In this document: in pieces, positions 3,193 to 18,497 of the stretch
How the letters are laid out: every line of letters begins with the position of its first letter
Position numbering within the stretch: the first letter of the stretch is position 1
Virus record (IMG/VR): IMGVR_UViG_3300017963_000129
DNA: 40,933 bases
Source: a virus
Strand: one strand, 5' to 3'
The notes under the pieces: model-generated
Database searches by the model: none
Told to the model about the DNA's origin: nothing
What the model saw: only the letters and a program-made list of their open reading frames with translations
Program-made: the position numbers and the translations under genes

Positions 3193-3207
3193 TCCCCCCT
3201 CACTGGC

Positions 3208-3606: not shown

Positions 3607-3662
3607 CGTTCACTCCTGTTTTTGAGTCCTGACTTGTTCATGCTCCCTGAACTTGTTCAGGC

Positions 3663-4761: not shown

Positions 4762-5369
4762 CCGATATCCGTCCTGACAAACTGTGCCATCCGGATCTCC
4801 CCCGCCGCGTTGGTCACCACGTTCGCCCCGGCCCGGGCCCGCAGAATCTTTTCCATCTTCTCCGCGTGCTCAAACGCCTGCTGACGCTGAAAACGCTGGC
4901 CATCCGCCTGGAAATCATACCAGTCCGAGAAATAGGCCGCCCGCTCTGCCCAGATATCGGCCGCCGCCGCGTTGATGTCGTAACTGTAGCCCGTCAGATA
5001 GTAGGCCGTGCCGCCCTGGCTGGTGGTGAAGGAAATCCTTCCCGAGCGATAATCGGCCGTGTAATTCGCCGTGCCGATCTCCGCCCCCGGGCCATCGCGC
5101 ACGATCCAGCGCGCCGTACCGCTGGCCGCCGTCTCGAAATCGCGATACTCCGCCGCGCACACCAGATACGTCACCGTACCCCCGCCGATCGACTGCGGCA
5201 GCCACGTCAGCGGAGCATCGATCATAAACGTGCTGTGACTATCCAGCGTGTCCTGGATGTGCTGATCCGACCACCATCCCTCCGCGTCGATATCATACTC
5301 ATCCGTACGCGCCTTCGTCAGACCCCGCACCCTCAGGATCAGATCCGACATACCAGCTCTTAGAGCCAT
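4758..5369 (-). CDS. Hypothetical virion protein (possible head-tail connector)
   Basis: 203-aa ORF coupled to the adaptor gene. No motif recognised. Confidence 0.4.
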   Translation of the reverse strand: MALRAGMSDLILRVRGLTKARTDEYDIDAEGWWSDQHIQDTLDSHSTFMIDAPLTWLPQSIGGGTVTYLVCAAEYRDFETAASGTARWIVRDGPGAEIGTANYTADYRSGRISFTTSQGGTAYYLTGYSYDINAAAADIWAERAAYFSDWYDFQADGQRFQRQQAFEHAEKMEKILRARAGANVVTNAAGEIRMAQFVRTDIG

Positions 5370-5372
5370 AGT

Positions 5373-5681
5373 TTACTCCTGCCCATACACATACCCCCAC
5401 GCCTCCACCACATTCGTGCCCACCGTAAACTTAATCTCCATCCGGTAGCGCGTGCCAGAGGTCAGCGACGTGATGGTGCCCGTCGTGATCTCATCCCCGC
5501 TCACAGAGGCCGTGCCAGAGACGTTGGTGCTGGTCACATCCGTGCCCGCCTCATCATACATCGCCACCGATGGTGATGTCGGGCTGGATCCCCACGGCGT
5601 CGTGGTCAGCACGTACTGGATCTGCTCATCCTCACCCTGATACAGAGGATGCTCTTTGAACTGCCGATCTGTGCTCTTCAT
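5373..5681 (-). CDS. Hypothetical small Ser/Thr-rich beta protein
   Basis: 102-aa ORF, tightly packed in the operon. Sequence VSGTASVSGDEITTGTITSLTSGTRYRMEIKF suggests an Ig-like/beta-sandwich fold, which is inference only. Confidence 0.45.
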   Translation of the reverse strand: MKSTDRQFKEHPLYQGEDEQIQYVLTTTPWGSSPTSPSVAMYDEAGTDVTSTNVSGTASVSGDEITTGTITSLTSGTRYRMEIKFTVGTNVVEAWGYVYGQE

Positions 5682-5687
5682 ATCGGC

Positions 5688-6113
5688 CTACCCTACGTTG
5701 ATAATGCCTTCAGATCCCCATTGGATGGTGAAGTCGCCGTTGGTGGAAGTTTTGTCTTCCGAGAAGTCAAAATACGCGATCAGGTTATCCGTCGCCGCCG
5801 CCCCCGTCGACTTGTACAGCACCGCCGCCCGCGCCGTGATGCTGGAGCTGCTCCAAGTCACATCCGCCGCGTCATACACGCCCTCATTGTCCGTGTTGTC
5901 CTGTGTTACCGTTCCGCTCGCCAGTGCCGTCCCCCCCGAAGTGTAACCCGTACCCGCCACCTCGTTGGTAACATCACTGCGCCGCGTATGGCTGTCCTGA
6001 TCTGGCGTATAACTGGAAGTCACCAACATCACCTTGATGGTGCCCGCCGCCATATCCCCGATCGAGCCATCCACCAACTCTTTCTTGAAACTGTTGTAAA
6101 CTACGTCTGCCAT
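5688..6113 (-). CDS. Hypothetical structural protein
   Basis: 141-aa ORF. It resembles a conserved phage virion-protein pattern I cannot name (KVMLVTSSYTPDQDSH...GYTSGG...LYKSTG). Confidence 0.45.
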   Translation of the reverse strand: MADVVYNSFKKELVDGSIGDMAAGTIKVMLVTSSYTPDQDSHTRRSDVTNEVAGTGYTSGGTALASGTVTQDNTDNEGVYDAADVTWSSSSITARAAVLYKSTGAAATDNLIAYFDFSEDKTSTNGDFTIQWGSEGIINVG

Positions 6114-6119
6114 TTTGGA

Positions 6120-7700
6120 TCACCTCGTTTCCAAAGTTAATGTCGCACTCCGCGACCACAAGGTGAGATCCCGCGTAACCGCCGCCCCGCTCACCACCGA
6201 AACCGTAACCGCAATCACCGCCACTGTCAGCGTCACCGTGCTGGGCAACACCAACCCGTCCCCCACCACCACTGGCGCCACCGTGCTGACCGTCAGCGCC
6301 TGCGTGCTGGCTGATACAATGATATCCCCTGCTAACACTGTAGGCGCCACCGTACTGGCCGTCAGCGCCTGCTCCCCAACCGCCACCAGCGCCCCGGCCG
6401 CGATCGTGGATGATACCGTGCTCACCGTCACCGTCTGCGTGTTGACCGCTACGGCAACCTCTCCCCCAATCAACACCGTCACCGCGATCGCGCTCACCGT
6501 CAGCGCCTGCGTATTGACCGCCACTGCGCAATCGCCGCTGATCGTGGGCGATACTGTGCTAACCGTCGCCGTCAGCGTGCTGACGTCCGCCGACACGTCC
6601 CCTGCGATGCTCACCGTCACCGCGATCGCGCTCACCGTCAGCGCCTGCGTATTGACCGTAACCAGCGCCCCGGCCGCAATCGTGGGCGAGACCGTACTGG
6701 CCGTCACACTCAGCGTGTTGACCGTAACCAACGCCCCGCCCGCAATCGTGGGCGAGACCGTGCTGGCCGTCACGCTCAATGTATTGACCGTAACCAACGC
6801 CCCGCCCGCAATCGTGGGTGATACCGTGCTGGCCGTCACGCTCAACGTGTTGACCGTCGTGCTTGCATTGGCCACCACGCTGATCGTGGGCGAGACCGTG
6901 CTGGCCATCACGCTCAGCGTGTTGACCGTCGTGCTCACATTGCCCACCACGCTGATCGTGGGCGAGACCGTACTGGCCGTCACGCTTAGCGTGTTGACCG
7001 TCGTGCTCACATTGCCCACCACGCTGATCGTGGGCGAGACCGTGCTGGCCGTCACGCTTAGCGTGTTGACCGTCGTGCTCGCGTTGGCCACCACGCTGAT
7101 CGTCGGCGTAACCGTGCTCACCGTCGCCGTCAGCGTATTCGGCGTAGCCGTCACGCTCACGGCCCCCGATAAGTTGCCCCCCTCCCAGTCGTCGATGCGA
7201 AACGCCGCACTCTCGTTATAGCCCGATACGCCAGCGGAACCCGAAGACATAGCCGAGTCGGTATCGGATGTTTCTTCCACATCGTCAATCAGCGCTGTTA
7301 TCGTCGTGCCTTCGGCCTCAATGCGCATCACCTCCGAGGCCGAGAGAGCGGTACCGTTGCTGCCTAACTGCGTCCAGGAACCGGACACCATCTTGAACAG
7401 ATACGAATTGGTATTATCTGTGTAAAAGCCGTAATAGGTCGCGGCCGACGCGTGACACCGCACAGCTACACCAATAGCGTAGGCAGCGCTACCAATTGCG
7501 ACTGCTGTCGCCTCGGCGTACTGATCGTTATTAAAGCTGTCCGCGTTCCAATGCGCGCCAGCCTCATCAACAGCTTCATCCGGCCCCAGCGCGTTGGTCT
7601 GGATGTGGAAGTCGCCAGTATTCAGCGTCCAGTTCGCACTATGTGCGGTTAGCTGCGTGCCATTGCTATTGGTAAAACTGTCGGTTGCCGGTAAAGCCAC
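6120..7700 (-). CDS. Fibre protein: N-terminal jelly-roll (LamG/concanavalin-like) domain plus about 15 tandem 22-24-aa repeats
   Basis: The N-terminal ~180 aa look like a globular beta domain. The rest is repeats of the type VNTLSVTASTVSPTISVVGNVSTT. The C-terminal end LTLWSRSATLTLETR is paralogous to the end of 8380..9573. Confidence 0.7.
   Translation of the reverse strand: MALPATDSFTNSNGTQLTAHSANWTLNTGDFHIQTNALGPDEAVDEAGAHWNADSFNNDQYAEATAVAIGSAAYAIGVAVRCHASAATYYGFYTDNTNSYLFKMVSGSWTQLGSNGTALSASEVMRIEAEGTTITALIDDVEETSDTDSAMSSGSAGVSGYNESAAFRIDDWEGGNLSGAVSVTATPNTLTATVSTVTPTISVVANASTTVNTLSVTASTVSPTISVVGNVSTTVNTLSVTASTVSPTISVVGNVSTTVNTLSVMASTVSPTISVVANASTTVNTLSVTASTVSPTIAGGALVTVNTLSVTASTVSPTIAGGALVTVNTLSVTASTVSPTIAAGALVTVNTQALTVSAIAVTVSIAGDVSADVSTLTATVSTVSPTISGDCAVAVNTQALTVSAIAVTVLIGGEVAVAVNTQTVTVSTVSSTIAAGALVAVGEQALTASTVAPTVLAGDIIVSASTQALTVSTVAPVVVGDGLVLPSTVTLTVAVIAVTVSVVSGAAVTRDLTLWSRSATLTLETR
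6649..7134. repeat. Near-perfect tandem repeats inside the fibre gene: 3 x 66 bp (6649-6846) then 4 x 72 bp (6847-7134)
   Basis: The anchor gt(g/a)ttgaccgt recurs at 6649, 6715, 6781, 6847, 6919, 6991 and 7063. More diverged copies extend from about 6185 to 7150. Confidence 0.9.
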
Positions 7701-8369
7701 TTAAAACTCCACACCACCCATCACAAACGACTGACCTTCCCAGAGATTGCCAGCTTGCTTAACCAATTGCCGTAACCGGGAATTGCGACTCACCAAGGTC
7801 CGATCATACCCAAACGATTCGAGCGTGAGATAAAACCACTCCTCCTCTTGCGCCGACATCTCGCGCAAGCGATCATCCAGCGTCGCCGTATCAAAAATAC
7901 TATGTAGCTCACCGCTCTGATCCGCCGCAATCCCGCCATAGCGTTGGTTAAACTGAAACATACCTGCCAACTGCCTGAGCAATTCGCGATACGTTGTGCT
8001 CGGCGTCAGCCAACCCGTAGGAATATGCAGCGTCTCAAAAAACACATCGATAGTCGGATCACTGACTGGTTGATCCACGTCCTCCGGGAATGCGTAAACG
8101 TCCGCATTCAAAACCAGTGCATCGTGATCTGCCTGCTCGATGTCGTGAGCCAACACCAGCATCGTCGGCACAAAACCATAATCCATCGCCGACCATCGAC
8201 AATCAATACCGGACGGGTTGAAACGCCACTTAAAATACTCCGGCCCTCGTGCGTTCCCCACCGTCTCCACTGGTACCAGATAAAAACGTCCCACAATTTC
8301 CTCCTGCGCTTGAACCGTAACCGGCCACAGAACCGTCAGCAGAACCAACAGCAATAATGCGCGTTTCAT
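7701..8369 (-). CDS. Secreted protein of unknown function (cleavable signal peptide)
   Basis: MKRALLLLVLLTVLWPVTVQAQEE with a GGAGGAG RBS before the ATG at 8369. The longer track ORF (to 8393) lacks an RBS. Confidence 0.65.
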   Translation of the reverse strand: MKRALLLLVLLTVLWPVTVQAQEEIVGRFYLVPVETVGNARGPEYFKWRFNPSGIDCRWSAMDYGFVPTMLVLAHDIEQADHDALVLNADVYAFPEDVDQPVSDPTIDVFFETLHIPTGWLTPSTTYRELLRQLAGMFQFNQRYGGIAADQSGELHSIFDTATLDDRLREMSAQEEEWFYLTLESFGYDRTLVSRNSRLRQLVKQAGNLWEGQSFVMGGVEF

Positions 8370-8379
8370 CCCTCTCCTC

Positions 8380-9573
8380 CTATAACACATCATTCAGCGT
8401 CAATCCCGTCGATCGATCGTTCAGCGTCAGCGTGATGATATTCCGCACCGTCGATACCGTCACCACAATCGCGGCCACCGTCACCGCCTGCGTGCTGGCC
8501 ACCGCCACCGCGTCCCCGCTGATCGTTGGATCCACCACGCTTGCCATCAGCGACTGCTCCCCCACCGCCGCCAGCGCACCGGCCATGGCCGTGGGCGATA
8601 CCGCGCTGACCGTCGCCGTCAGCGTGCTGACCGTCACCGCGCAATCCCCACTGACCATCAGAGATAGCACACTGGCAGTCAACACCACCGGAACCGTCAG
8701 CGCAACCGCGTTTGAATTGGTAGTTACCGCCCGATCCACCAGGCTCGTCGTCAGCGTCTGCGTATTGACCGCCGCCAGCGCACCGGCCATGGCCGTGGGC
8801 GATACCGTGCTGACCGTCACCGCCAGCGCGCTTAGACTGATACTCTGGTTAGTGCCCAGCGACACCGTAGGCGATACCGTGCTGACCGTCACCGCCAGCG
8901 CGTTAACCGCCGCCAGCACCCCGGTCACGGCCGCGGGCGATACCGTGCTGACCGTCACGCTCAGCGTGCTGACCGTAACCCCGCTGTCCCCGCTCACCGT
9001 CGGCGCCACCACGCTCACTGTCACGCTCAGTGTAGTAGCCGCCGCTAGCGTCCCCACCGTATACTCAATTATCAGCCGCGCTCCGTACGAGTTGCCGGTA
9101 TAATCGTACATTCGCGGCTCAAAATCCACCCCACTCGTGCTATTCAATAGCACAGCCAGCGCGTTGTACTGGCTCCACCCTCCCCGGTCGATGATTTCCT
9201 GAATGATCGTTGTGATGTCCGGACTCGCCTGCCAGCCCACGCCCACGCTGGCGCTGTCCCAGCTCACTGATCCGGAGGTCGTTGTCCGATTGGATATATT
9301 GCTGGCCGTCGCCGCAAACGTCGCCGCGTCGTCCTCATCCTCTCCATAGATCACAAAATGAATTTCGTCATTGGCGCTATCGTGAGCATACATCTCCAGA
9401 TATGCGGACGTAATTGTATAACTGCCCCCCAACGGCACGGTCGTGAACCGCGCTCCCAACCACGCACCAGCTTGCACTATCGTCGGGCTGGAATCCGACG
9501 TTAATACCTGAGTTCCGCTTGTCTGGTTTGCATCGTCAGACGATGCGTTTACCTGCAATATGACACTAGGCAT
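8380..9573 (-). CDS. Fibre protein paralog: distinct N-terminal globular domain plus about 9 Ser/Thr/Val repeats
   Basis: The N-terminus QVNASSDDANQTSG... looks like a carbohydrate-binding-like beta domain. The C-terminal part carries TLSVTVSTVSPT-type repeats (about 8400-9050) and ends ITLTLNDRSTGLTLNDVL. Confidence 0.7.
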   Translation of the reverse strand: MPSVILQVNASSDDANQTSGTQVLTSDSSPTIVQAGAWLGARFTTVPLGGSYTITSAYLEMYAHDSANDEIHFVIYGEDEDDAATFAATASNISNRTTTSGSVSWDSASVGVGWQASPDITTIIQEIIDRGGWSQYNALAVLLNSTSGVDFEPRMYDYTGNSYGARLIIEYTVGTLAAATTLSVTVSVVAPTVSGDSGVTVSTLSVTVSTVSPAAVTGVLAAVNALAVTVSTVSPTVSLGTNQSISLSALAVTVSTVSPTAMAGALAAVNTQTLTTSLVDRAVTTNSNAVALTVPVVLTASVLSLMVSGDCAVTVSTLTATVSAVSPTAMAGALAAVGEQSLMASVVDPTISGDAVAVASTQAVTVAAIVVTVSTVRNIITLTLNDRSTGLTLNDVL

Positions 9574-11050
9574 TGTAGTACAACCACGTCTCCGCGCCGA
9601 CTAGCGCCGCCACAGCACTATCTGCCAGAATTCCCTCCGGATCGTCGCTGTCCGTGCTAATATTCGTATCCCGTTCATCAGCGCCGCGCCCGCTAAAATC
9701 AGAATCCTCAGAGATATACAATTTGAGATTCATCAGCAATTCATGCACCCACTCCGCCGAGTTATTCAGCCGCATCATATGTGATGTTCTGTGCTGGTCC
9801 TCGCCCCCGATCCGGTACGTGACATCCACGTAAATCATCCCCCCTCCCGACGTCACGTTCTCGATATCGTTCACGTACACACTCGTGCCAGCATCGATGC
9901 TGATATCTGATCGACTGTTCTCCTCGAAACCCCAAACAGCTCGCACATATGACAGCGATCTCGATGTGCTGCTCACCTCCCAGCTCCCCGCGTCCGCATA
10001 GCAATTATAGTCGCTATCCAGCATTGACGTCGTTTCAGTGCAAATGTCGTCATCACTGTTTCCGCTAAAATAATTCCCCCGCAACTTTTGTTTGGTCGAC
10101 GTTCCCAAACCTGCACTGTTCAAATACCCGATGCCATAGCTGCCATCGATGAACGCACAATTCAACGTCTGATTGGCATCGCCGTACATAAACATTCCGC
10201 CTTCGTCAGCCGTCATTCCGACAGACGTGCACTCCCTAACAACATGCCCCGTATAGTTCAGACTGGGATCGTGCCCGGCCATATAGGCCCCGTTTTGAAA
10301 CGCCCTGTTCGCGATTGTACCCGATCCCGTAACATATACCCGCTGCACTATATTCCGCGCCCCGCCCAGCATCAGCGCCGCAGGTTCCCAATCGCCACAG
10401 TCTGTTATCACGCAATCCTCAATGAGACAATCATAACAGCCCTGCTTCATATCAATCCCGTTTGATCTCGTATTTGAAACAGTGCAATTCGATATCGTTC
10501 CATAATTTAGCTCTAATGTGTAACTTGCAGCATTACCGAAATAGATCCCCTCCTCGCTCATGGTATCCACTGTGCAATTCTGGACTAAAATATGATTGCC
10601 GTCTCTTATTTGGATACCGCGCTCCGCGTCATGAACATAAACATCGTCAATTTCCAGATACTCCAATTCTTGCACTTGTATGCAATTCACCCCGCTGCCC
10701 GTCAATTCCAAAACCCTGATCTTCATATGATCAGCGCTGGGCCAGCTCACCGAACGATGCAACGCCCAACTGTTCACCCCATTGCCATCGATCACCGGGC
10801 GCCCCGTCCCATATGCCTGAATTACGAATTCATTCCCAGAAGACCCCGAGCAATCGCGGATAAACAACACGTCGTCCGCATCAGTATGCGTCCATGTATC
10901 GCCGCCCTGGAAATTAATTGAATCGCCCGCCCCGAACGTGCCAGCATAAAAGTTATCATCAACCTTATCCAGCGTCTTCCACGCCTGCCCCGAGGCCGTC
11001 CCGCTATTGCTATCGCTCCCCCCATCCTGATCCACGTAATACGACGTCAT
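9566..11050 (-). CDS. Right-handed parallel beta-helix protein (pectate-lyase fold; tailspike/depolymerase-like)
   Basis: N-terminus YYVDQDGGSDSNSGTASGQAWKTLDKV. Repeated NCTV..N.GI...C.D motifs (VQNCTVDTMSEEGIYF, ISNCTVSNTRSNGIDM, IEDCVITDCGDW). Confidence 0.75.
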   Translation of the reverse strand: MTSYYVDQDGGSDSNSGTASGQAWKTLDKVDDNFYAGTFGAGDSINFQGGDTWTHTDADDVLFIRDCSGSSGNEFVIQAYGTGRPVIDGNGVNSWALHRSVSWPSADHMKIRVLELTGSGVNCIQVQELEYLEIDDVYVHDAERGIQIRDGNHILVQNCTVDTMSEEGIYFGNAASYTLELNYGTISNCTVSNTRSNGIDMKQGCYDCLIEDCVITDCGDWEPAALMLGGARNIVQRVYVTGSGTIANRAFQNGAYMAGHDPSLNYTGHVVRECTSVGMTADEGGMFMYGDANQTLNCAFIDGSYGIGYLNSAGLGTSTKQKLRGNYFSGNSDDDICTETTSMLDSDYNCYADAGSWEVSSTSRSLSYVRAVWGFEENSRSDISIDAGTSVYVNDIENVTSGGGMIYVDVTYRIGGEDQHRTSHMMRLNNSAEWVHELLMNLKLYISEDSDFSGRGADERDTNISTDSDDPEGILADSAVAALVGAETWLYYNA

Positions 11051-11652
11051 GCATCCCTCACATTCGGATTTGCCCAGCGCTCATAATACTTCGCGTTCCC
11101 GTCGTAGACCGCCTCGATCTCCCCTACCTGGTCAAGACCCAAGTCCCGAAACAACCGCCTCACAAACCTCTCCGGCCGCATCACCAGCGCCTCATACGAA
11201 ACGATCATATACGACACCGCCAGCCGCTCAAACGCATCGAATATTCTCGTGTACACATCCATCGCCGCCTGGCTATTCAAGCCGTAATTAGCCCCCGCCT
11301 TGTACTCCGTGTCCACCTGGCTCTGCACCATACAACACCAATCACGCACCAGCACCAACCCAAACACCTCATAGCCGTGCTTCCGCGCCTGTCCCACATC
11401 CCGATCGTAAAATCGCGGCCAATTCCCCCGAGGAACCATCCCCGGCACACTCCGACCCCACACGATCAGCGGCTCATCCTCCGCCAATGGCAGCCTCTGA
11501 TCAAACCTCTGCTCCAGATCTCGATCCCCCGCGCATCCCGCCCCATCGATCAGGATCCTCCGCAAAAGTCGATTCCCGCTGCTCTCCGGACCGTAAATCA
11601 TAAACGCCCTGCCAGTCACCTGTCCATCCCTGTAAAACTCACCGCTCCCCAT
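11047..11652 (-). CDS. Sulfotransferase-like protein (tentative)
   Basis: N-terminal loop FMIYGPESSGNRLLRRIL is like a PAPS-binding 5-prime-PSB loop. C-terminal VSYEALVMRPERFVRRLFRDLGL resembles the YEDL...P......FLG motif of bacterial sulfotransferases. The start at MGSGEF is chosen to limit overlap. Confidence 0.4.
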   Translation of the reverse strand: MGSGEFYRDGQVTGRAFMIYGPESSGNRLLRRILIDGAGCAGDRDLEQRFDQRLPLAEDEPLIVWGRSVPGMVPRGNWPRFYDRDVGQARKHGYEVFGLVLVRDWCCMVQSQVDTEYKAGANYGLNSQAAMDVYTRIFDAFERLAVSYMIVSYEALVMRPERFVRRLFRDLGLDQVGEIEAVYDGNAKYYERWANPNVRDA

Positions 11653-12367
11653 GCACAATGTGCGTGCTCGTATCACACCACACCTCAAAACCCGCCTCCC
11701 GAGCCATCACGCACAACCCGTGATCCACATCCTCCGCCGTGTGCCGACATCCCGCCCGTGGCACATCCGCCCGCATCAACATCATCCCCCCCGTCGTCTC
11801 CATCTCAATCGCCCCCTGCGGATAATGCGCCGCGTACCACGCCGGACCGTACGGCGGAAACGGCCTCCCCTCCCGGATGAAACCCCACACGTCGTAAAAT
11901 CGCATCCCGTTCGCGTTCTGCACCGGATCCCCCTGGTGATCCCCAATCCAGAACATAGGGCTGATCACGTCCTTCTCCCAGCTCAGCAACCGCCGCAGCG
12001 TATCCGGCTTATAGATCACATCGCTGGGAATAAACCACACGTAATCAGCCCAATCATCCTCGATCGCCACCTCCAGCCCGTGATTAAACACCCTGGCCAG
12101 CGTCGCAAACCGCTCTGGATGCACGATGCTCCCATAATGTGGCTTCCCCGTGTCGCACTTCGTGATCTTCCGTCGCCGATCGCCATGCGCCCACGCATCC
12201 AGCATCGCCAGCGTGTTATCCTCCGAGTCCCCTTCCACGAGGACCCAGCGCAGCCGCTCGGGAGGATAGTCGATCGCCTCAGCTTGCTGTATGTATTGAT
12301 CGATGTGCCGCTCGTTGTTCCGAAACGGCGTCTCTATGGTGACGTTGTAAAACCGTTCTGTACTCAT
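11639..12367 (-). CDS. Glycosyltransferase family 2-like protein
   Basis: FYNVTIETPFRNNERHIDQYIQQAEAIDYPPERLRWVLVEGDSEDNT matches the GT-A N-terminal layout. DYVWFIPSDVIY is DxD-like. The start at 12367 has an AGGA-type RBS. Confidence 0.55.
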   Translation of the reverse strand: MSTERFYNVTIETPFRNNERHIDQYIQQAEAIDYPPERLRWVLVEGDSEDNTLAMLDAWAHGDRRRKITKCDTGKPHYGSIVHPERFATLARVFNHGLEVAIEDDWADYVWFIPSDVIYKPDTLRRLLSWEKDVISPMFWIGDHQGDPVQNANGMRFYDVWGFIREGRPFPPYGPAWYAAHYPQGAIEMETTGGMMLMRADVPRAGCRHTAEDVDHGLCVMAREAGFEVWCDTSTHIVHGER

Positions 12368-13076
12368 CCAGATTCCTGACTTCCTCTCCATACACCGTCG
12401 CGTACGGCAACGGCGGATACGTCATAGCCCGAATAAACCGCTCCACCTGATCCTCCGGCCAATTCGGATCGATCCGCCCCCCATACGGCGGACCCGCGCT
12501 GTGATAGCTCATATTGCTTGTTAGCCCCGCCGTTTGCTCCCAGCCCGTCAACCCCCACTTCACCATCGTTAGCGCCGTAGACCAGTATTCCACCGTCGCA
12601 TCGTCGACCTTAGAAAATAGACTCGCCTGCGTCTCATCTGGCGCCACCCGGATCGGTACCTGCAAAATCACCTTGCCCGTGTCGATCCCTTCATCTATAT
12701 AATGAAACGTCACACCCGTAGTAAAATCCCCCTCCACAATCGCCCACGCCACCGGCGACCTTCCCCTGTGCCGTGGCAACAGCGACGAATGCGCGTTGAA
12801 AATCCGCCCCCCTACCGCATCGATCACGTGCGGCTTAACGATCGTCCGGTAATACACACTCGAAATCACGTCGGGCTCAAACGGCCATAGGCCCATCTGA
12901 TTAACGCTGCCCGTCGTGCACCACACCCCCAGCTCCCCGGCCGCACCCATCAAGCTCTGACCCAGCACTCCCGCCTCGTGCGTAAAAACCGCCACCTCAT
13001 TAATATCTGGCCGCTTCACCACACGCCGCAGCACGCTCTCCCCTGCCACCCCAAAACCGCACAAAAACAGCTTCAT
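12279..13076 (-). CDS. Formyltransferase (Fmt/ArnA/sugar N-formyltransferase family)
   Basis: IFNAHSSLLPRHRGRSPVAWAIVEGDFTTGVTFHYIDEGIDTGKVILQ carries the N..H..D formyltransferase signature. The ATG at 13076 overlaps the GT4 stop (ATGA). Confidence 0.8.
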   Translation of the reverse strand: MKLFLCGFGVAGESVLRRVVKRPDINEVAVFTHEAGVLGQSLMGAAGELGVWCTTGSVNQMGLWPFEPDVISSVYYRTIVKPHVIDAVGGRIFNAHSSLLPRHRGRSPVAWAIVEGDFTTGVTFHYIDEGIDTGKVILQVPIRVAPDETQASLFSKVDDATVEYWSTALTMVKWGLTGWEQTAGLTSNMSYHSAGPPYGGRIDPNWPEDQVERFIRAMTYPPLPYATVYGEEVRNLDEYRTVLQRHHRDAVSEQRAAHRSIHTAS

Positions 13077-14371
13077 TCCGCTTGCTCCCCTCCCAGCGGG
13101 AGGGGCTCGGGGAGGGAGAAACTCTTCCCCGCATCCACCAACTTCTTGATATCCCGCAATGCAGGCCGCCAATACTTCTCAAAAACCGCCTCCTGATCGT
13201 ATTTGGCCACGCCCTTCCGCGCCTTCTCCCTCAACTTCGGATTATCCCGCTCCTGCCATGCCTCTTCCATGGCATCCGCGATCTGGCCCGGCTCCACCTC
13301 CATCCGCCACGCCTCCGCCCCCGGATACCATGCCCGGTGTCCCCCCACCTTCCATCCCGCGCTCAGCAGCTCATCCGTGTTTGCAAAATCCGTCGCGATC
13401 ACCGGACATCCGCACATCTGCGCTTCCACCAGCGGCAAGCCAAACCCCTCCGATTTAGCCGGATTTAGCAGCACATCCGACGCCCGGTACACATCCACCA
13501 TATATTGCTCGCCCAGCATCCCCATAATGTACCCGTACTGATCCGGCTGCACCACGTGCTCGCCCACTCCCAGCGACTTCGCGATCTCCCCCACCTTTAT
13601 CGGCCCGCCCCAATCCGTGTGCACGTACAGCACCGCCTGTGCCTCTGGCCGTCGCTCCACGAACTGCGCAAACCCCTGCAGCGCCACAGCGAACCCTTTG
13701 CGATCGTTCGCGTCTTTGTTCGCCGCTATCATACTCACCAGGAAATCAAACTCCCGTCCCAGGTCGAACCGCGTCCGCGCCTCCGCCTTGTCTCCCGGCG
13801 TAAACACATCCATCGGAGCCCCACACGGCACATATTTCGCATTAATACCCGCCTTCGCCAGCTCATCCACTCCAAACTGGCTATAGCACATCGGATAAAT
13901 CGCCGGACCCAACGCCCGCACGATACCCCCAGCCACCGGGCTCGTATCGATTGGCAGCCACGGAGCGAAATTCGTTTTGCTTGTCTCCTCTGGCGGAAAC
14001 ACAAACACGTCACACACCGTCATCATCACGTCACACTCATTGCGGCGGTAATTCTCCACCATGATCGCCTCGCCGTACGTATTCCCCCCCACCTGGTGAT
14101 GCGGCAACACCCGTACAGACGTCGCTTTCTTCCCGTTCGCCTGGATCGTCCACGGCATAGGTTGACCCTGCAAACCGTACCACGTCCCCAGCACCACCTC
14201 ATACCCCGCCCGTACAATCGGCGGAACCGCCCGCATCGTCAACACCGAATAACTGCTCGGGCTCCATGGTGCCGTACTATGCCAATATATCCTCACAACC
14301 TCCCCCTTTTCCAGGATCCCCCTCCCCATCCCCCCTCCCACTGGGAGGGGTTGGGGGAGGGAGATCCTCAT
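13073..14371 (-). CDS. Glycosyltransferase family 4 (GT-B, retaining type)
   Basis: NPAKSEGFGLPLVEAQMCGCPVIATDF is the classical GT4 E-x7-E region. The true start is probably 14329 (ATG) or 14296 (GTG, VRIYWHS), because codons upstream lie in a repeat element. The last ~15 codons also run through a repeat element. Confidence 0.85.
   Translation of the reverse strand: MRISLPQPLPVGGGMGRGILEKGEVVRIYWHSTAPWSPSSYSVLTMRAVPPIVRAGYEVVLGTWYGLQGQPMPWTIQANGKKATSVRVLPHHQVGGNTYGEAIMVENYRRNECDVMMTVCDVFVFPPEETSKTNFAPWLPIDTSPVAGGIVRALGPAIYPMCYSQFGVDELAKAGINAKYVPCGAPMDVFTPGDKAEARTRFDLGREFDFLVSMIAANKDANDRKGFAVALQGFAQFVERRPEAQAVLYVHTDWGGPIKVGEIAKSLGVGEHVVQPDQYGYIMGMLGEQYMVDVYRASDVLLNPAKSEGFGLPLVEAQMCGCPVIATDFANTDELLSAGWKVGGHRAWYPGAEAWRMEVEPGQIADAMEEAWQERDNPKLREKARKGVAKYDQEAVFEKYWRPALRDIKKLVDAGKSFSLPEPLPLGGEQAE
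13085..13122 (+). repeat. 38-bp C-rich/G-rich palindromic element, copy 1
   Basis: ctcccctcccagcgggaggggctcggggagggagaaac. Lies inside the 3-prime end of the GT4 CDS. Confidence 0.85.
14329..14365 (+). repeat. Palindromic element, copy 2 (diverged)
   Basis: cccccctcccactgggaggggttgggggagggagatc. Lies at the 5-prime end of the GT4 ORF. Confidence 0.8.
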
Positions 14372-14394
14372 TACCTACCTACCCCATTACCTAC

Positions 14395-14799
14395 CTACCC
14401 CGCCGTAGTGATCCCTTCCACGTACTCCACGATCACGGTCGCGTCCGCCGTCAGATCGTTTCCGGCAGCCGCCTCCACCTTCTTCAGCACCAACCACTCA
14501 CCGCTATCGATATAGGCGTTTGCCGCCGTGGTTGTCACCGTCAGCGACTGCGGCGTATCTGCCGCCCACACGGTCGCCGTCCCGCTGGCCATCGACGCCA
14601 CGGTACCGCCCGCCACCGTGCCGCCCGAACCATAGTTCTGCAGCACGAAATCCAGCGTACCCGCCACGCCCGTCACCGCGTGCGCAGCGATCACCGTAAA
14701 CCCGCCATACGTCGAACTCGCTTTTGCCAGATAGCACAGATCGCCATCACCCGGCATCGTGTCCGGCGCCACTACCAAAAACTTGCTTCCCTGACCCAT
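14395..14799 (-). CDS. Hypothetical protein downstream of the capsid gene (possible decoration protein)
   Basis: 134-aa ORF with an AAGGAG RBS. Gly/Thr/Ala-rich beta-type sequence. Function inferred from position only. Confidence 0.5.
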   Translation of the reverse strand: MGQGSKFLVVAPDTMPGDGDLCYLAKASSTYGGFTVIAAHAVTGVAGTLDFVLQNYGSGGTVAGGTVASMASGTATVWAADTPQSLTVTTTAANAYIDSGEWLVLKKVEAAAGNDLTADATVIVEYVEGITTAG

Positions 14800-14851: not shown

Positions 14852-15706
14852 CTAAGACGTCGGTGCCGCCGCGTCAAACGTCATACACACGCCCCACTCC
14901 GGTCGCCAGACGCCATGCGCGTACATCGCCGTCATATTCAGTTCCCAACCGCGCCGACTCGCATCCCGTTCCGGCTCCAGCCGCGGCGCCCGCCTGGTAT
15001 CCAACGCCAGCGCCAGCGGGCTGAACATCGCCCCATTTGCATCGTCCGTAGCGTCCACAGTGACGTCCGAGGTAATAAACACATCTACATTACCCACGCG
15101 GCCTACAAACCACTGCCGCGTCACTTCGTCCTGGAACTCTGGCGCGTTCGCTTGGGTCGTGGTCGCGATGCTGGCCGCCTTTGCCAACTGATGCCACTGG
15201 TAAACGTGCAGCACGCATCGGTACGGCATCGGCGCCTTCGCATTGCGCAGCGCGCTCAGTGCCGCGAAGAAGTGCCCCCACGTAATCGTAGTGCCCGCGG
15301 CGCCGATCGTACCCGCCGTCAGACTGGAGAAGTTCCCCAGGATGTCCGTGTTGATCTTCTCCGCGATCGCGTACCCCAGCTCCATCGCCGCGTCGCTGCG
15401 CACACCCATGGGATCCGACTCGATCCTGGTGTCAGGCAGGAAGAATTGCGCCCCCTTCTCTGCCGGAGTCAGCGTTGCGATATCGCTTGGGGTAAACGCC
15501 TGGCTCTGGAGATCGTCCAACTCGCCCAGCGTCGCGATTGTCGCTTCACTATAGCGCGTGCTGGTTCGATCCCGAGTCCCGGTCGCGTCGTTAAACGTGG
15601 TCACCAACCGCGGCATAATCGCGTTGTCCCGGGCGATAAACCACGCATCGTTGTAAATCGTCTGGATATAGGTACTGATATCTGTGCTTGGATTCGTTGC
15701 TGCCAT
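14852..15706 (-). CDS. Major capsid protein (HK97-fold by position and size)
   Basis: 284 aa with an AGGAG RBS, directly after the scaffold gene. The composition is typical of small HK97-like capsid proteins. No search was run. Confidence 0.7.
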   Translation of the reverse strand: MAATNPSTDISTYIQTIYNDAWFIARDNAIMPRLVTTFNDATGTRDRTSTRYSEATIATLGELDDLQSQAFTPSDIATLTPAEKGAQFFLPDTRIESDPMGVRSDAAMELGYAIAEKINTDILGNFSSLTAGTIGAAGTTITWGHFFAALSALRNAKAPMPYRCVLHVYQWHQLAKAASIATTTQANAPEFQDEVTRQWFVGRVGNVDVFITSDVTVDATDDANGAMFSPLALALDTRRAPRLEPERDASRRGWELNMTAMYAHGVWRPEWGVCMTFDAAAPTS

Positions 15707-15801: not shown

Positions 15802-16485
15802 TCACCCTCTCTCGTCTGGCAAACCCTTCGGCCAAAAAACCCCGCCGCCCTGCGACTCTGGGTTTTCCATATCCCAGATACCGCCGCCGCCGTAGATCCT
15901 CTGGCGCATCTGCGCCGCCGTCTCGCGCACCGGGCTGCCTTCCGAGCCCGGCGCAAACGGCTCCAAAGAGCCCGCGCCCCGTTTCAACAGATAATCCCGA
16001 TCCTTCGCCAGCTTTTCAACTAGCGCCTCTGCGTTTTTCACCTGACCCTCATCGTCAAACTGTATTTGTGATACATCGATCAGCGCAAACGCATCATTCG
16101 GATCGTTGAAATTTAGCTTCGCCGCCGCCGCGATCACTGCCGATCGCACCGCCGTATCCCTGGCCAGCGTCTCAGCCTGCCCCTTAGCCTGCTCCAACTC
16201 CGCCAGTTTTTTCTGCAGCCGTTCTGTTTCAGACAATTGAGTTTCCTCAATCTCTTTCAACTTCGCCGCCGCTGCCTGCAGATCCTTATAATCCGCATAC
16301 TTCTCCCGCTCCCGCTTCAGCCGTTGGCCGATCTCATATTCCATATCTGCCTGCGTAAATAGCTTCTGCTTTGGCGTTTCCTCCCTTGTAGGAGTCTGCT
16401 TCTCCGGCATTTGCTCCGAACCTGCGCCCGGATCCTGGCCGCCGTCGCCCTGCTGTTCAACCTTCTCATCTTTCTCTGCCATCAT
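15802..16485 (-). CDS. Scaffolding protein
   Basis: Acidic, Lys/Glu-rich, coiled-coil-like 227-aa protein between the head morphogenesis and capsid genes. Confidence 0.65.
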   Translation of the reverse strand: MMAEKDEKVEQQGDGGQDPGAGSEQMPEKQTPTREETPKQKLFTQADMEYEIGQRLKREREKYADYKDLQAAAAKLKEIEETQLSETERLQKKLAELEQAKGQAETLARDTAVRSAVIAAAAKLNFNDPNDAFALIDVSQIQFDDEGQVKNAEALVEKLAKDRDYLLKRGAGSLEPFAPGSEGSPVRETAAQMRQRIYGGGGIWDMENPESQGGGVFWPKGLPDERG

Positions 16486-16515: not shown

Positions 16516-16659
16516 TTACTTTCGCTCTTTTTCTGCCAACTGTAGCTTGATCGCTGCCATCAACACGCCCTTATTCTGGATTGACCACTCATTCGCCTTC
16601 TCATCGTACAGCAACTTCACAACCTGCGCCGTCACCTCTTCCGGAGTCTTTGCGGCCAT
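16516..16659 (-). CDS. Small hypothetical protein (47 aa)
   Basis: Manual translation: MAAKTPEEVTAQVVKLLYDEKANEWSIQNKGVLMAAIKLQLAEKERK. Its ATG shares one base with the upstream stop (TAATG). Below the track cutoff. Confidence 0.35.
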   Translation of the reverse strand: MAAKTPEEVTAQVVKLLYDEKANEWSIQNKGVLMAAIKLQLAEKERK

Positions 16660-18497
16660 TAGAACCTCGTACTTTCAATAATATCCGCCAATTGCATCTT
16701 CCGATAGGCATCGATCGTCGGCACATTCAGCGGATCCTGCGCCGCCAGATCGCAAACCGCCGCCAGATCATAATCCACCGTCTCCGCCAAAATCCGCCGC
16801 GTCTTACTTGGCACCTGGTCAATTGATTGTAAATCCCCCCGTGCCTTCCTGTACGGCTCTTTTCGCCCTATCTCCCTCACCACCCGCCGCCGCTCCCCAA
16901 ACGTCGCGTGCTGGATATCCTCTGCCGTAAAGCCTACCCGTTGCAACAGCTCCCCATACGCCTCACTCAGCTCATCCTGCGCCCTGTCCCACATCTGGCC
17001 CCGGATCCGCGCTGCCTCCCGTACACTGAATTGCCCCCGCTGCACTTGTACCACCTTCCCCCCCACGTCCGCGTACCCGTCAAATTTCGCCCCCCTCATC
17101 TCCTGCACTTTCAAATTAATCCCCTCTTTGCTGTATTTCTTGTACAGCTCATATCCCTCATCCCGCAGATTATTCGCCATATATTCCCATTCAACCCGGC
17201 TCAAATCGTTCGGCATCTTCTGCAAATAAGTCCACACTGCCTCATTCAAATCTCGCTCTTCCTTGTGCATCTCCTGCAGCGTATCCAGATATCCCTTCAG
17301 CCCTTCCGCCTCGCCCGCGTTCCCGCTAGCCAGTGCCGCCTGATAGGCTTGCTGCACTTGCTGAATCTCCTCCCCCGACTCAAGCTCAAAATCACTTCGT
17401 GGCCGTGGTGGTGGACCCGATGGTACGCCGCTCCTGCCCTTCCCATTCCCCCCCAACAAATCCTTCAGACTATTCTCCCGCAACAGCTCCCCATACACAT
17501 CATCCTCATAACTCTTCGTCAAATCCCCAAACTCAAACTTCCCCTCTTTCCACGCCTGGTACATCCCCGGCCCCATCATCTCCCGCTGCACGCTCTCCGC
17601 TTGCCTGTTAAACCAATCCTCACCCCGCTCGATCTCTGATGTAATCTCATCAATCGGAATTCCCAAATCCCGATAGCTAATCGTTTTCGGCAATGGCGCG
17701 CACCGCCCGTTATGATGATCCCGCATCGTCTCCGTCGCTGGATGTTCGCTCCCGTGCAGATTCACACAACTCATACACGTCCTACCGTCCAGCGCGCTGT
17801 GCCAGATCCACATAGGCACAATATTCGGGTTTGCCAAATACGTCGACTGATTAGCCAATTGATACGACTTGATCTGCGCCGTCCTCACCGTCGTTAGCGC
17901 CGAGCTCAACCCCGGCCCCATCCCCTCCCGCAAATTGCCCATCATTTTGCGCGCAATCTCCCGCGGATTCAGACCCGCCGCCACCCCCGTCAGCAAATGT
18001 CGCTTCACGCTCTCCGCAACAAATTCCCCATACGCCTCCTGCAGCCGCGTCGCCAGTGGACTCTCCGCCCCCAGCAAACCTGCCACGCTCTCCACCGCGT
18101 CCGAATGCAACCGCGTAAACGAGCTTACGATCCGCCGCCGCCCACCCTCGCCGATCTCTGGCAAACTCGCCTCCATCAACCGCAGCGCATCATCCACCCC
18201 CTGCTCAATCGCCTCCCCCTGGATCGTCGCCACTTCGCCCTGCACAATCACTCCAAACTTCTCCGCCTCTTCCGCCACCTGCGCTAATATCGCCCGTCCC
18301 CGCGCCAATTCCCACGCCTGCCCGATCTTGATCTCCTCCATCCCCGCCAGACGCTCCACCAGCGCCCCTATATCCCCTTCCATGTCGACATAAATCCTGG
18401 CATAAATCCGGCCCATCCGCGCCGCCGCCTCCGCCTCCCGCGCCGCAAGCTTCTCCCGGAACTTCCGCGCCGCCTCAATCGCCCCTGGCCGCGGCAT
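16659..18497 (-). CDS. Head morphogenesis protein (SPP1 gp7 / Mu F family) with long C-terminal extension
   Basis: MWIWHSALDGRTCMSCVNLHGSEHP is the gp7/Mu F signature. Lies downstream of the portal. Confidence 0.8.
   Translation of the reverse strand: MPRPGAIEAARKFREKLAAREAEAAARMGRIYARIYVDMEGDIGALVERLAGMEEIKIGQAWELARGRAILAQVAEEAEKFGVIVQGEVATIQGEAIEQGVDDALRLMEASLPEIGEGGRRRIVSSFTRLHSDAVESVAGLLGAESPLATRLQEAYGEFVAESVKRHLLTGVAAGLNPREIARKMMGNLREGMGPGLSSALTTVRTAQIKSYQLANQSTYLANPNIVPMWIWHSALDGRTCMSCVNLHGSEHPATETMRDHHNGRCAPLPKTISYRDLGIPIDEITSEIERGEDWFNRQAESVQREMMGPGMYQAWKEGKFEFGDLTKSYEDDVYGELLRENSLKDLLGGNGKGRSGVPSGPPPRPRSDFELESGEEIQQVQQAYQAALASGNAGEAEGLKGYLDTLQEMHKEERDLNEAVWTYLQKMPNDLSRVEWEYMANNLRDEGYELYKKYSKEGINLKVQEMRGAKFDGYADVGGKVVQVQRGQFSVREAARIRGQMWDRAQDELSEAYGELLQRVGFTAEDIQHATFGERRRVVREIGRKEPYRKARGDLQSIDQVPSKTRRILAETVDYDLAAVCDLAAQDPLNVPTIDAYRKMQLADIIESTRF

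Follow-up and report, generated by a model that had tools for sequence, protein, structure and literature searches.

What do the four sugar-modifying enzymes encoded amid the virion structural genes of IMGVR_UViG_3300017963_000129 act upon? This record is a complete 41-kb phage genome (circular assembly, ~40.8 kb); the window, that is, the whole stretch of DNA analyzed, comprises 40,933 nucleotides. The phage is a temperate siphophage encoding an integrase and ParA, and MAG bins point to conflicting taxa for its host. Its late structural operon has the order terminase, portal, MuF, scaffold, capsid, p134, GT4, FT, GT2, ST-like, 5.7-kb insert, and connector genes, all co-directional and with start and stop codons that overlap or abut. 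The four enzyme ORFs lie back to back on the minus strand (11047–14371), and encode a GT4 glycosyltransferase, a WbkC-type sugar N-formyltransferase (FT), a GT2 glycosyltransferase, and a small sulfotransferase-fold protein (ST). The original prediction of a four-enzyme cassette within the virion structural operon is borne out by this arrangement, as are the flanks it described: the capsid gene (Phage_capsid_4) is upstream, and genes for a beta-helix protein and repeat proteins, and then connector genes, are downstream. A KD19-type hydrophobicity scan found no transmembrane segments in the four proteins, which are predicted to be soluble.

The GT4 gene (13073–14296, minus strand) encodes a GT-B, retaining-type enzyme of ~407 amino acids. 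The protein matches Pfam Glyco_trans_1_4 (3.8e-12) and Glycos_transf_1 (1.6e-11), both over the cut-off, as well as PHROG 2170, glycosyltransferase (1e-26). Its PDB matches are MshA-like and PimB-like, and its NCBIfam and PDB relatives are cell-envelope enzymes, for example PimB, MshA, and EpsE. The expected E-x7-E motif is intact (E308-x7-E316, numbered from ATG 14371). The identity and motif foreseen for this protein hold, but its start does not: the longest ORF runs from ATG 14371, and because homologs begin at residue 26 of that ORF (MKILWHS...), translation probably starts at GTG 14296. The GT4 and FT genes overlap as ATGA, as had been noted.

FT (265 amino acids; 12279–13076, minus strand) belongs to PF00551 (6e-26). 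Its best PDB match is the Brucella GDP-perosamine N-formyltransferase WbkC (5VYS/5VYR/5VYT, E 7e-33), and the match spans residues 3–242, C-terminal subdomain included. Together with an intact N-H-D triad (N94, H96, and D132), this confirms the formyltransferase assignment. WbkC-type enzymes usually serve O-antigen synthesis. Homologs of FT occur in two related loci, L002 (47% identity) and L053 (49%). The last ~23 codons of FT overlap the start of the GT2 gene (11639–12367, minus strand), whose GT-A product has 242 amino acids from ATG 12367 or 250 from ATG 12391. With ATG 12367, the start favored by the L053 homolog, the overlap is the 89 nt originally reported; in L053 it is 62 nt. The GT2 assignment is secure in terms of PF00535 (2.6e-8; 34.4 bits, cut-off 23.3), and Anp1 also scores over its cut-off (30.6 versus 28.8 bits). 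An EGDS nucleotide motif is present, but the anticipated DxD is replaced by P-S-D. In the family alignment nine relatives have E-S/A-D at this position, and the GT2 of L053, also FT-linked and 53% identical, has IPSD there too.

The ST gene (11047–11652, minus strand) encodes 201 amino acids from ATG 11652, or may start at GTG 11619. Pfam matches to Stf0 (8e-4) and Sulfotransfer_3 (3e-3) are under the cut-off. However, the top 34 Foldseek PDB hits of its AF2 model (pLDDT 87.4) are all PAPS sulfotransferases, among them TPST2, SULTs, Stf0, and HS-3OST, and its 3'-phosphate motif R-D-x6-S aligns with that of TPST1. The canonical 5'-PSB Lys/Arg is absent, with GPESSGNR where PKSGTT is expected; a family-specific G-x-E-S-S-G-T/N-R loop takes its place. 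The original sulfotransferase assignment is supported in its fold, as modeled, and not in its PAPS loop, and since the canonical Lys/Arg is missing, sulfate chemistry is unproven. The family is large, its profile matching 1554 representative clusters. Of 151 diverse members, most retain G-x-E-S-S-G-T-R and R-D-x6-S-Q; fusions to methyltransferase or GT domains occur in the family, two proteins of which pass the Sulfotransfer_3 cut-off. Homolog N-termini fit GTG 11619 better than ATG 11652, which makes the start, and hence the predicted 14-nt GT2/ST overlap, uncertain: it exists only with ATG 11652, and GTG 11619 leaves a 19-nt gap. The 4-nt ATGA overlap between the ST and beta-helix genes stands. 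A search of 50,697 phage records yielded neither a full-length homolog of FT nor any homolog of ST, in keeping with the earlier statement that no described cassette combining formyl and possibly sulfate chemistry is known.

On the other side of GT4 are the genes for the major capsid protein (284 amino acids; 14852–15706, minus strand; Pfam Phage_capsid_4, 5.9e-9; PHROG 267) and p134 (134 amino acids; 14395–14799, minus strand). The capsid protein ends in ...AAAPTS, and an A-x-x-P-[ST]-[SG] tail is kept across relatives. The AF2 model of p134 is all-beta (pLDDT 89.5) and was matched by Foldseek to capsid chain J of Ralstonia phage GP4 (TMq 0.54), capsid chain H of cyanophage Pam1 (TMq 0.50), and, in BFVD, 'virion structural proteins' of S-TIM5 and MaMV-DC. 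Judging from this model, p134, which has more than 149 homologs, is probably a jelly-roll protein that decorates or cements the capsid.

The synteny among related phages to which the original prediction had pointed is extensive. We compared the 31 loci whose sequence extends 1.2 kb or more past the capsid gene (capsid identity 41–71%); in 30 of them a GT4 homolog follows in the order capsid, p134, GT4, the same order as in the isolate Microcystis phage Mae-JY09. The sole locus lacking GT4, L030, lacks p134 too, and its capsid protein has a 120-amino acid C-terminal extension instead. In three further loci (L046, L048, and L049) p134 and GT4 remain close (70% and 52% identity, respectively) despite a capsid just 36–38% identical, which suggests that these two genes are passed on together. 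By these comparisons, GT4 behaves as a lineage core gene tied to capsid and p134.

The region between GT4 and the first connector gene is a hypervariable island in the relatives. Its distal border is p203 (4758–5369, minus strand), the first conserved head-tail connector-region gene, which directly follows the island in relatives and is succeeded there by Phage_HCP, gp10-like, and tail-completion genes. The islands of relatives encode DegT aminotransferase, PglD-like N-acetyltransferases, O-methyltransferases, formyltransferases, UDP-Galp (Galf) mutase, B12-radical SAM enzymes, and extra GT2, GT4, and GT34-like enzymes. L053 repeats the FT-GT2-ST trio (49, 53, and 44% identity, respectively), with the connector gene directly next and no fibers. 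In a second phage lineage, a GT4 gene near the capsid gene is followed, a few genes on, by ST-like genes. Pontimonas phage phiPsal1, described as lytic (PMC6106888), has a related set in the same place (MCP-GT4-MTase-GT2-neck), with GT4 straight after the MCP gene.

These comparative data favor virion glycosylation over a seroconversion moron, as the original prediction did, and on balance we lean toward the cassette being a late-expressed island that glycosylates virion proteins. Phages of this group probably decorate their own virions with a variety of sugars. A precedent is offered by mycobacteriophages, in which phage-encoded GTs modify capsid and tail tube C-termini (Freeman et al. 2023, summarized in PMC11600133 and PMC12619734), although GT4 has no detectable similarity to those enzymes. 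The soluble GT4, as the core enzyme, would glycosylate a virion surface protein in the cytoplasm during late infection with host NDP-sugars, the most likely target being p134, the capsid C-terminal ...A-P-T/S-S tail, or both. The variable FT-GT2-ST module would then elaborate the GT4-initiated glycan. FT would N-formylate a host-made NDP-4-amino-4,6-dideoxyhexose (GDP-perosamine-like) with N10-formyl-THF as donor; GT2, which starts inside the FT tail and travels with FT, would move the N-formylated sugar onto the glycan; and the ST-fold protein would add a further group, sulfate if PAPS is the donor. As relatives exchange the tailoring set (methyl, acetyl, formyl, amino, Galf, and radical SAM), the island may act like an O-antigen-type diversity locus, but for the phage particle surface.

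Some observations weigh against virion glycosylation. Adjacency and co-inheritance are expected from simple linkage too, and the phage is temperate, so the cassette may be expressed in lysogens. The window has no sugar-nucleotide synthesis genes (no dehydratase and no aminotransferase), which means that the amino sugar has to be supplied by the host, a dependence that fits host-glycan modification as well. ST lacks the 5'-PSB Lys/Arg and GT2 has PSD rather than DxD. In addition, p230 (7701–8393, minus strand), encoded in the nearby insert, has an N-terminal signal-peptide-like segment (MKRALLLLVLLTVLWPVTVQAQ; KD19 hydrophobicity maximum 1.90 at residue 12), and with this predicted signal peptide the region is seemingly not wholly virion-structural. 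The cassette might instead modify host O-antigen, S-layer, or exopolysaccharide precursors (lipid-linked or nucleotide-sugar), either in lysogens, as seroconversion, or late in infection, masking receptors against superinfection or against loss of progeny on debris. This reading, which also draws on the O-antigen enzyme WbkC being the nearest characterized relative of FT and on the cell-envelope relatives of GT4, is possible but unlikely. GT4 is kept like a structural gene beside capsid and p134, unlike sporadic morons, and a related set occurs in the lytic-described phiPsal1. Sited in the middle of an operon and ~17 kb away from the integrase gene, the cassette has coupled start and stop codons, and promoter-like sites are not in excess in its interior. 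Nor did we find in the genome any Wzx, Wzy, GtrA, GtrB, flippase, or acyltransferase-type membrane proteins to accompany the four enzymes, which themselves lack transmembrane segments.

If virion proteins are the substrates, the adjacent Ser/Thr/Val-rich fibers, which the original prediction took to be natural substrates for O-glycosylation on the virion, are improbable as the main ones. They belong to the 5.7-kb insert, the first gene of which encodes a right-handed beta-helix protein (494 amino acids; 9566–11050, minus strand; Pfam Beta_helix, 2e-15) that is glycosidase- or lyase-like and resembles lacto-N-biosidase LnbX at its N-terminus. The fiber p397 (8380–9573, minus strand) has an N-terminal globular domain followed by S/T/V-rich repeats; it had no family match in profile searches and clusters by BLASTP with p526 (6120–7700, minus strand), which has a lectin-like N-terminal domain followed by 24-amino acid tandem repeats (TRF: 72-nt period, 6.5 copies, 87% match). 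Their position just downstream in the same operon, the S/T-rich repeats, and the lectin-like look of the N-terminal domains speak for such a role. However, the insert with its fibers is found only in the present genome among the loci examined, the beta-helix protein, p397, and p526 having no homolog in any related locus, and GT4 is kept across relatives without such proteins. The GT4...FT-GT2-ST set recurs in L053, where fibers are missing, and p397 and p526 are only putative virion components.

We consider it very unlikely that FT-GT2-ST is cargo, inactive or in decay. The PSD of GT2, the P-loop of ST without Lys/Arg, the sub-threshold Pfam scores of ST, and the long gene overlap could be taken as signs of decay, but both motif 'defects' are conserved family traits, as seen in the IPSD of L053 and the loop of most ST family members. 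No ORF is disrupted, the FT triad is complete, and L053 shares the overlap between FT and GT2. Hypermodification of phage DNA, by glycosylation of modified bases against restriction, is hardly credible: DNA-decorating GTs are familiar from phages (cited in PMC12619734), but base-modification genes of the hydroxymethylase or thymidylate-synthase type are absent from the window, the cassette belongs to the head module and not to the replication module, and a sugar-nucleotide-type FT with a GT-A/GT-B pair is more typical of glycan assembly.

The earlier remark that no terminator or promoter was visible remains valid only for canonical terminators, none of which occurs in the cassette interior. 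The p134-GT4 gap contains a GC-rich extended hairpin (14313–14368, minus strand; MFE -50.5 kcal/mol, z -2.8). With GT4 starting at GTG 14296, the 75 nt upstream become part of a 98-nt intergenic region with this hairpin, which would probably hold enzyme expression below that of the abundant capsid and decoration proteins. The hairpin has no U-tract and carries a CCCCTCCC-AGT-GGGAGGGG element, one of seven copies of CCCTCCC-N3-GGGAGGG in the window (zero expected). A second copy of the palindromic element (13088–13104, minus strand) lies across the 3' end of GT4, shortly before FT begins.

The genome carries an exact 123-nt terminal direct repeat (1-123 and 40811-40933), which indicates that the contig was assembled as a circle and that the genome is complete at ~40.8 kb. 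Essentially every gene lies on the minus strand. The annotated head genes on this strand are the large terminase (22687..21041), an SPP1-type portal (21010..19589), a MuF-like head morphogenesis protein (18497..16659), the scaffold (16485..15802), a major capsid protein of the Phage_capsid_4 family (15706..14852), and a 134-amino acid protein, p134 (14799..14395). The four enzymes of the cassette, a GT4 glycosyltransferase, a formyltransferase (FT), a GT2 glycosyltransferase, and a sulfotransferase-like (ST-like) protein, come after p134 and before a β-helix protein (11050..9566, minus strand). Two repeat proteins, p397 and p526, lie on either side of a signal-peptide protein, p230; small connector and tail genes (6113..2884) and the tape measure protein (2697..1303) are also on the minus strand. 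The distal tail genes are located at 37.6-40.9 kb. A tyrosine integrase (31195-32184) and a ParA-type ATPase (25921-26688), both on the minus strand, are present together, which would allow the prophage to be either integrated or plasmid-maintained. Genes for a DNA methylase and a primase occur elsewhere in the window, in which no tRNA genes were found.

The cassette was compared with related phage loci, comprising 32 viral contigs from a capsid alignment, 10 MAG-binned contigs, and more obtained through p134 and ST homologs. A GT4 homolog follows the capsid gene in 30 of the 31 loci having at least 1.2 kb downstream of capsid, usually at a distance of 400-700 nt and with a p134 homolog in between. 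The sole exception, L030, has neither p134 nor GT4, and its capsid protein has a C-terminal extension of ~120 amino acids. In L046, L048, and L049, the capsid is 36-38% identical to that of the window, yet p134 is 70%, GT4 52%, portal 55-58%, and p203 (the first conserved connector gene, 4758..5369) 60% identical, which indicates that p134 and GT4 travel together even when the capsid gene has been exchanged. The L049 MuF-like head morphogenesis gene (5823-8090) contains an intein (755 amino acids, Intein_splicing), and the MuF match of L011 (7454-9304) is interrupted by ~0.8 kb, suggesting an insertion there too.

The predicted structure of p134 is a jelly roll (pLDDT 89.5) that resembles chains in the capsid structures of Ralstonia phage GP4 and cyanophage Pam1, as well as cyanophage 'virion structural proteins', and would suit a protein that decorates or cements the capsid. 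The p134 family is abundant and unannotated, and over 149 homologs were found. Throughout the lineage, capsid proteins terminate in a conserved A-x-x-P-[ST]-[SG] sequence (L001-L053; 14852-14866 in the window), and by analogy with mycobacteriophages, this C-terminal tail is a candidate glycosylation site. Capsid-adjacent GT4 genes also occur in two isolates. Microcystis phage Mae-JY09 (PP395641) has a capsid gene (49% identity), a gene for a 132-amino acid protein, and then GT4, and Pontimonas phage phiPsal1 (MG835450) has the order MCP, GT4, SAM methyltransferase, GT2, and neck protein. The window GT4 is 33% identical to that of Mae-JY09 and 28% to that of phiPsal1. As in the window, these sets combine a homologous GT4 with further enzymes and a neck or adaptor gene, but they carry no FT or ST. 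Their records label the genes generically ('RfaG glycosyltransferase', 'group I glycosyltransferase'), and we found no published function for them in the literature.

GT4 scores 47.1 and 44.5 bits against Glyco_trans_1_4 and Glycos_transf_1 (cut-offs 27 and 26.4) and matches PHROG 2170 (1e-26). It is of the CAZy GT4-type GT-B class, having both a C-terminal domain above the curated cut-off and the E-x7-E motif, which is intact (E308-GFGLPLV-E316) and lies in a region that aligns with MshA. Both MshA and PimB are among the PDB structures that it resembles. Homologs of GT4 begin at window residue 26 (e.g., L053, with MKILWHSTAPWSPSSYS), and thus the start is likely GTG 14296 rather than ATG 14371. 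Membrane-like segments are missing from all four enzymes (maximal 19-residue hydropathy ≤1.14), none of which reaches an equivalog-level name or cut-off in NCBIfam.

FT matches PF00551 (91.7 bits, 6e-26), and its best PDB match is the GDP-perosamine N-formyltransferase WbkC of Brucella (PDB 5VYR/5VYS/5VYT; E 7e-33), which aligns with residues 3-242 of 265. Matches to other formyltransferases are far weaker (ArnA 1e-20, Fmt 7e-17, PurN 7e-15), and FT has the full-length architecture of a sugar-nucleotide enzyme rather than that of Fmt or PurN. Both enzymes have an unusual C-terminal subdomain as well as the HxSLLPxxRG motif and the Asn-His-Asp triad, with N94, H96, and D132 aligning with NLH...DTG of WbkC. 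FT differs from WbkC in falling below the NCBIfam equivalog cut-offs, in being phage-encoded within a head operon, and in lacking the partners Gmd and Per. No dehydratase or aminotransferase partner is encoded in the window, and no sugar-nucleotide biosynthesis genes were found among the proteins scanned. The alignment with WbkC stops at residue 242, and hence the last ~23 codons of FT, which overlap GT2, form a nonconserved tail.

This 89-nt overlap had been described and is borne out by GT2 homologs, which support ATG 12367. The related phage L053 has a 62-nt overlap at the same junction, indicating that the overlapping arrangement is conserved. GT2, of the GT-A class, matches PF00535 (Glycos_transf_2; 34.4 bits, cut-off 23.3) and Anp1 (30.6 bits, cut-off 28.8). 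At the position of the DxD (or ExD) motif, which binds metal and nucleotide sugar, it has P-S-D, as compared with E-S/A-D in nine relatives. The FT-linked GT2 of L053 (53% identity) likewise has IPSD, and therefore P-S-D appears to be a conserved subfamily variant; a first reading as a lesion, drawn from the nine relatives, was dropped.

The ST-like protein falls below the Pfam cut-offs for Stf0 (8e-4; 19.4 versus 22) and Sulfotransfer_3 (3e-3; 18.3 versus 27). Sulfotransfer_3 is matched by nine of 14 close homologs (best E-value 2e-4), and two distant, fused family members pass its cut-off of 27 (28.0 and 29.2). An AlphaFold (AF2) model built from 14 homologs (pLDDT 87.4) agrees with the sulfotransferase fold proposed originally, as Foldseek ranks 1-34 in the PDB are all PAPS sulfotransferases (best E 3e-5, TMq 0.37-0.53), including TPST2, SULTs, Stf0, and HS 3-OST. 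The PAPS-binding motifs are present in part. A 3'-phosphate binding motif is found, in that R103-D-W-C-C-M-V-Q-S111 (R-D-x6-S) aligns with VRDGRASVHS of TPST1, as does the C-terminal YEaLv-x-P region in a profile alignment, but the 5'-PSB loop (G21-P-E-S-S-G-N-R28) does not have the canonical Lys/Arg (PKxGTT or xRSGTT). Instead, Ser or Glu occupies this position, and an invariant Arg occurs two residues past the Gly. Conservation across 151 family members is strong for both the loop, G-[PA]-E-[ST]-[ST]-G-[TN]-R, and R-[DE]-x6-S-Q, the latter occurring as R[DE]x6SQ in 122. Compared with TPST1/2, Stf0, and HS 3-OST, with which it shares fold and these motifs, the ST-like protein is ~100 residues smaller and has a distinct G-x-E-S-S-G-T/N-R loop. 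Its fold and context are therefore sulfotransferase-like and glycan-related, and PAPS-dependent sulfation would be a candidate activity. Homology to RecA was rejected, the match consisting of just the Walker-A-like GPESSG string.

Homologs of the ST-like protein have merely 3-4 residues ahead of the first strand, which suggests that its start may be GTG 11619 instead of ATG 11652. The 14-nt overlap with GT2 noted in the original prediction exists from the ATG but becomes a 19-nt gap from the GTG. The family comprises 1,554 representative clusters by profile search and has no name in any source searched. The domain is repeatedly fused to a SAM methyltransferase and sometimes to GT47/CAP59-like domains (P0137, P0168, P0173, P0177, P0196, P0236, and P0244). 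In a second, unrelated phage lineage (L033 and L054), a capsid-proximal GT4 is followed, a few genes later, by an ST-like gene.

The gene content of the interval between GT4 and p203 varies from phage to phage. This island contains GT2 and a formyltransferase in L002; GT2 and a PglD-like N-acetyltransferase in L004; two GT2 and a DegT-type sugar aminotransferase (14201-15328) in L008; a B12-binding radical SAM protein and two more radical SAM proteins (12554-15227), a second GT4, and a CBM96/disaggregatase-repeat protein in L011; UDP-galactopyranose mutase (6652-7713) in L013; two methyltransferases and two GT2 in L019 and L021; a GT34-like transferase in L031; and GT2, with or without an acetyltransferase, and an O-methyltransferase in L046-L050. 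A recurring theme is the making and N-acylating of amino sugars, through aminotransferases, acetyltransferases, and formyltransferases. L053 has the order GT4, hexapeptide acetyltransferase, FT, GT2, and ST-like, followed directly by p203. Since L053 carries all three of FT, GT2, and ST-like (49%, 53%, and 44% identity to the window, respectively), these constitute a conserved module.

As compared with L053, the window has an extra 5.7-kb insert (11050..5373) encoding the β-helix protein, p397, p230, p526, p141, and p102. Of these, p141 alone is matched by a homolog among the related loci examined, in L015. The adjacent repeat fibres had been put forward as the substrates of the cassette, a proposal left unsupported by the occurrence of the module in L053 without them. 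The repeat regions of p526 (6120-7700) and p397 (8380-9573), both on the minus strand, are paralogous, rich in S/T/V, and composed of a 24-amino acid unit (72-nt period, 6.5 copies); the N-terminal domains of the two proteins differ and look lectin-like. Long open antisense frames across the repeats (e.g., 6115-7221, plus strand) were set aside as a compositional artefact. Between these proteins, in the midst of the structural operon, p230 (7701-8393, minus strand) begins with a signal-peptide-like segment, MKRALLLLVLLTVLWPVTVQAQ, and matches no family; a secreted or envelope moron is a possibility. The N-terminus of the β-helix protein (9566-11050, minus strand) resembles lacto-N-biosidase LnbX (GH136). 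This protein has no recognisable virion-anchoring domain, is encoded in the head module away from the distal tail genes, and could be a depolymerase or glycan-trimming enzyme.

The most economical reading of the sequence, predicted structures, and synteny is that the cassette is a virion-glycosylation island. The core GT4 would be a cytoplasmic enzyme whose target is the decoration protein, the capsid tail, or the two together, and the exchangeable tailoring enzymes would diversify the resulting glycan. The WbkC-like FT would formylate an NDP-4-amino-dideoxyhexose supplied by the host, the FT-linked GT2 would transfer the formylated sugar, and the ST-fold enzyme would add a further group. Judged from their position and from the coupling of the genes, the glycosyltransferases are placed among virion genes and would be co-expressed with them in the late operon.

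The main rival is that the enzymes modify a host surface glycan, as do the O-antigen conversion modules gtrABC, Oac, and Iap/Wzy-α, which are likewise glycan enzymes encoded by temperate phages and dependent on host sugar pathways. The O-antigen ancestry of WbkC is in keeping with such a role, as are the temperate lifestyle and the reliance on host sugar pathways here. However, those modules consist of integral membrane proteins expressed independently as morons near att/int, whereas the window enzymes are soluble and are encoded within an operon, after the capsid gene and ahead of the connector genes, with the integrase ~17 kb away. Membrane components are absent, and Pfam identified no GtrA/GtrB/Gtr*, Oac, or Wzy families among the window proteins scanned. 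Promoter and terminator scans gave only background, although the stable hairpin preceding GT4 may have a regulatory role. GT4 is also not sporadic as a moron would be, behaving as a core gene of the lineage, and a related enzyme set occurs in phiPsal1, described as lytic by its authors (PMC6106888). Glycosylation of DNA by the cassette is unlikely, as is decay of its genes.

Virion glycosylation has experimental precedent in mycobacteriophages alone, which the window cassette would parallel by analogy. Phage particle glycosylation was reportedly first demonstrated there by Freeman et al. in 2023 (Cell Host Microbe 31:1216) and judged to be rare elsewhere. Summaries of this work on phages of the Che8, Corndog, and Myrna type describe glycosyltransferases that are phage-encoded, often with an O-methyltransferase (PMC11600133), and whose targets are the C-terminal ends of the capsid and tail tube subunits (PMC12619734, PMC11600133). 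Both systems have soluble, phage-encoded glycosyltransferases with a virion surface target, a probable one in the window phage, and the C-terminal targets of the former have a counterpart in the conserved P-T/S-S tail of the window capsid. The two differ in that no sequence similarity was detected between the window GT4 and Mycobacterium phage glycosyltransferases. A tblastn search of 50,697 phage records with GT4 returned 17 matches, none from a Mycobacterium phage, which suggests that the window system arose from unrelated glycosyltransferases. The homolog in Tetrasphaera phage TJE1 is not capsid-adjacent and was not used as support. Further differences are that the window capsid is of the Phage_capsid_4 family, that mycobacteria are unlikely to be the hosts (the host of the nearest isolate being Microcystis), that GT4 belongs to the core genes of the whole lineage and is paired with a decoration-like protein, and that tailoring would include N-formyl and possibly sulfate chemistry.

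A DNA-level search with the whole cassette gave no match among the 50,697 phage records, in which we also found no ST-like homolog and no match to FT covering 80% or more of the query. Because isolated phages in these records thus lack full-length FT or ST, capsid-adjacent formyl and possible sulfate tailoring appears to be undescribed, and we found no paper on such a cassette. To our knowledge, a lineage-wide capsid-p134-GT4 unit with a hypervariable island is likewise unreported. The unit suggests that particle glycosylation extends much more widely than actinobacteriophages. In a large metagenomic lineage, a glycosyltransferase is fixed beside the genes for capsid and decoration protein, and the tailoring genes turn over fast, which suggests that particle glycans are common and under diversifying selection. 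Plausible pressures are recognition by antibodies, lectins, or grazers; particle stability; and adsorption. We regard as possible, though less likely than not, a reading in which virion glycosylation is a core trait of an abundant and almost entirely uncultivated siphophage lineage (nearest isolate Mae-JY09), carried out by GT4 with a jelly-roll decoration protein and an O-antigen-like hypervariable island, and yielding, in the window phage, an N-formylated amino-sugar glycan modified by an unrecognised clade of small ST-fold enzymes (G-x-E-S-S-G-T-R loop, ~1,500 representative clusters, often methyltransferase-fused). Were this reading right, the glycan would be the first formylated or sulfated one on a phage particle, and particle glycosylation would be widespread beyond actinobacteriophages. 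Mae-JY09 would serve as a test system, as would recombinant capsid or p134 co-expressed with GT4. The proposed virion role also provides a functional context for two poorly characterised groups, phage WbkC-like formyltransferases and the G-x-E-S-S-G-T-R sulfotransferase-fold family, and such cassettes could serve in the glyco-engineering of therapeutic phages.

The host of the phage was sought through genome contigs. A profile scan with a three-sequence capsid alignment gave no match in these, and a second scan returned only MAG-binned phage contigs with conflicting taxa (Chloroflexi, Lysobacterales, Saccharibacteria, Planctomycetaceae, and Staphylococcaceae). The window shows no enrichment of the cyanobacterial HIP1 palindrome, GCGATCGC (5 versus 2.7 expected), and a cyanobacterial host thus receives no support.

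The cassette had been described as having no visible terminator or promoter. No canonical intrinsic terminator was found within it, and promoter-like sites are at background, but a strong hairpin separates p134 from GT4. The 98-nt stretch from p134 to the probable GT4 start folds into this hairpin (-50.5 kcal/mol, z -2.8), which is built around a palindromic element, CCCTCCC-N3-GGGAGGG, and by which, we infer, expression may be adjusted relative to the enzymes, or the capsid-p134 transcript stabilised relative to them. The element occurs in seven copies in the genome versus 0 expected: a tandem pair upstream of the capsid gene (15734-15750 and 15765-15781), one before GT4 (14333-14349), one at the GT4/FT junction (13088-13104), a tandem pair near 27.2 kb (27186-27202 and 27220-27236), and one at 37.3 kb (37297-37313). 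The copies usually have the 5' arm TTTCTCCCTCCCC and form very stable hairpins with no U-tract. None of the 55 related loci contains the element, which is therefore uninformative on the lineage. It may have come from the host, as a REP-like or regulatory sequence, and could help to identify that host.
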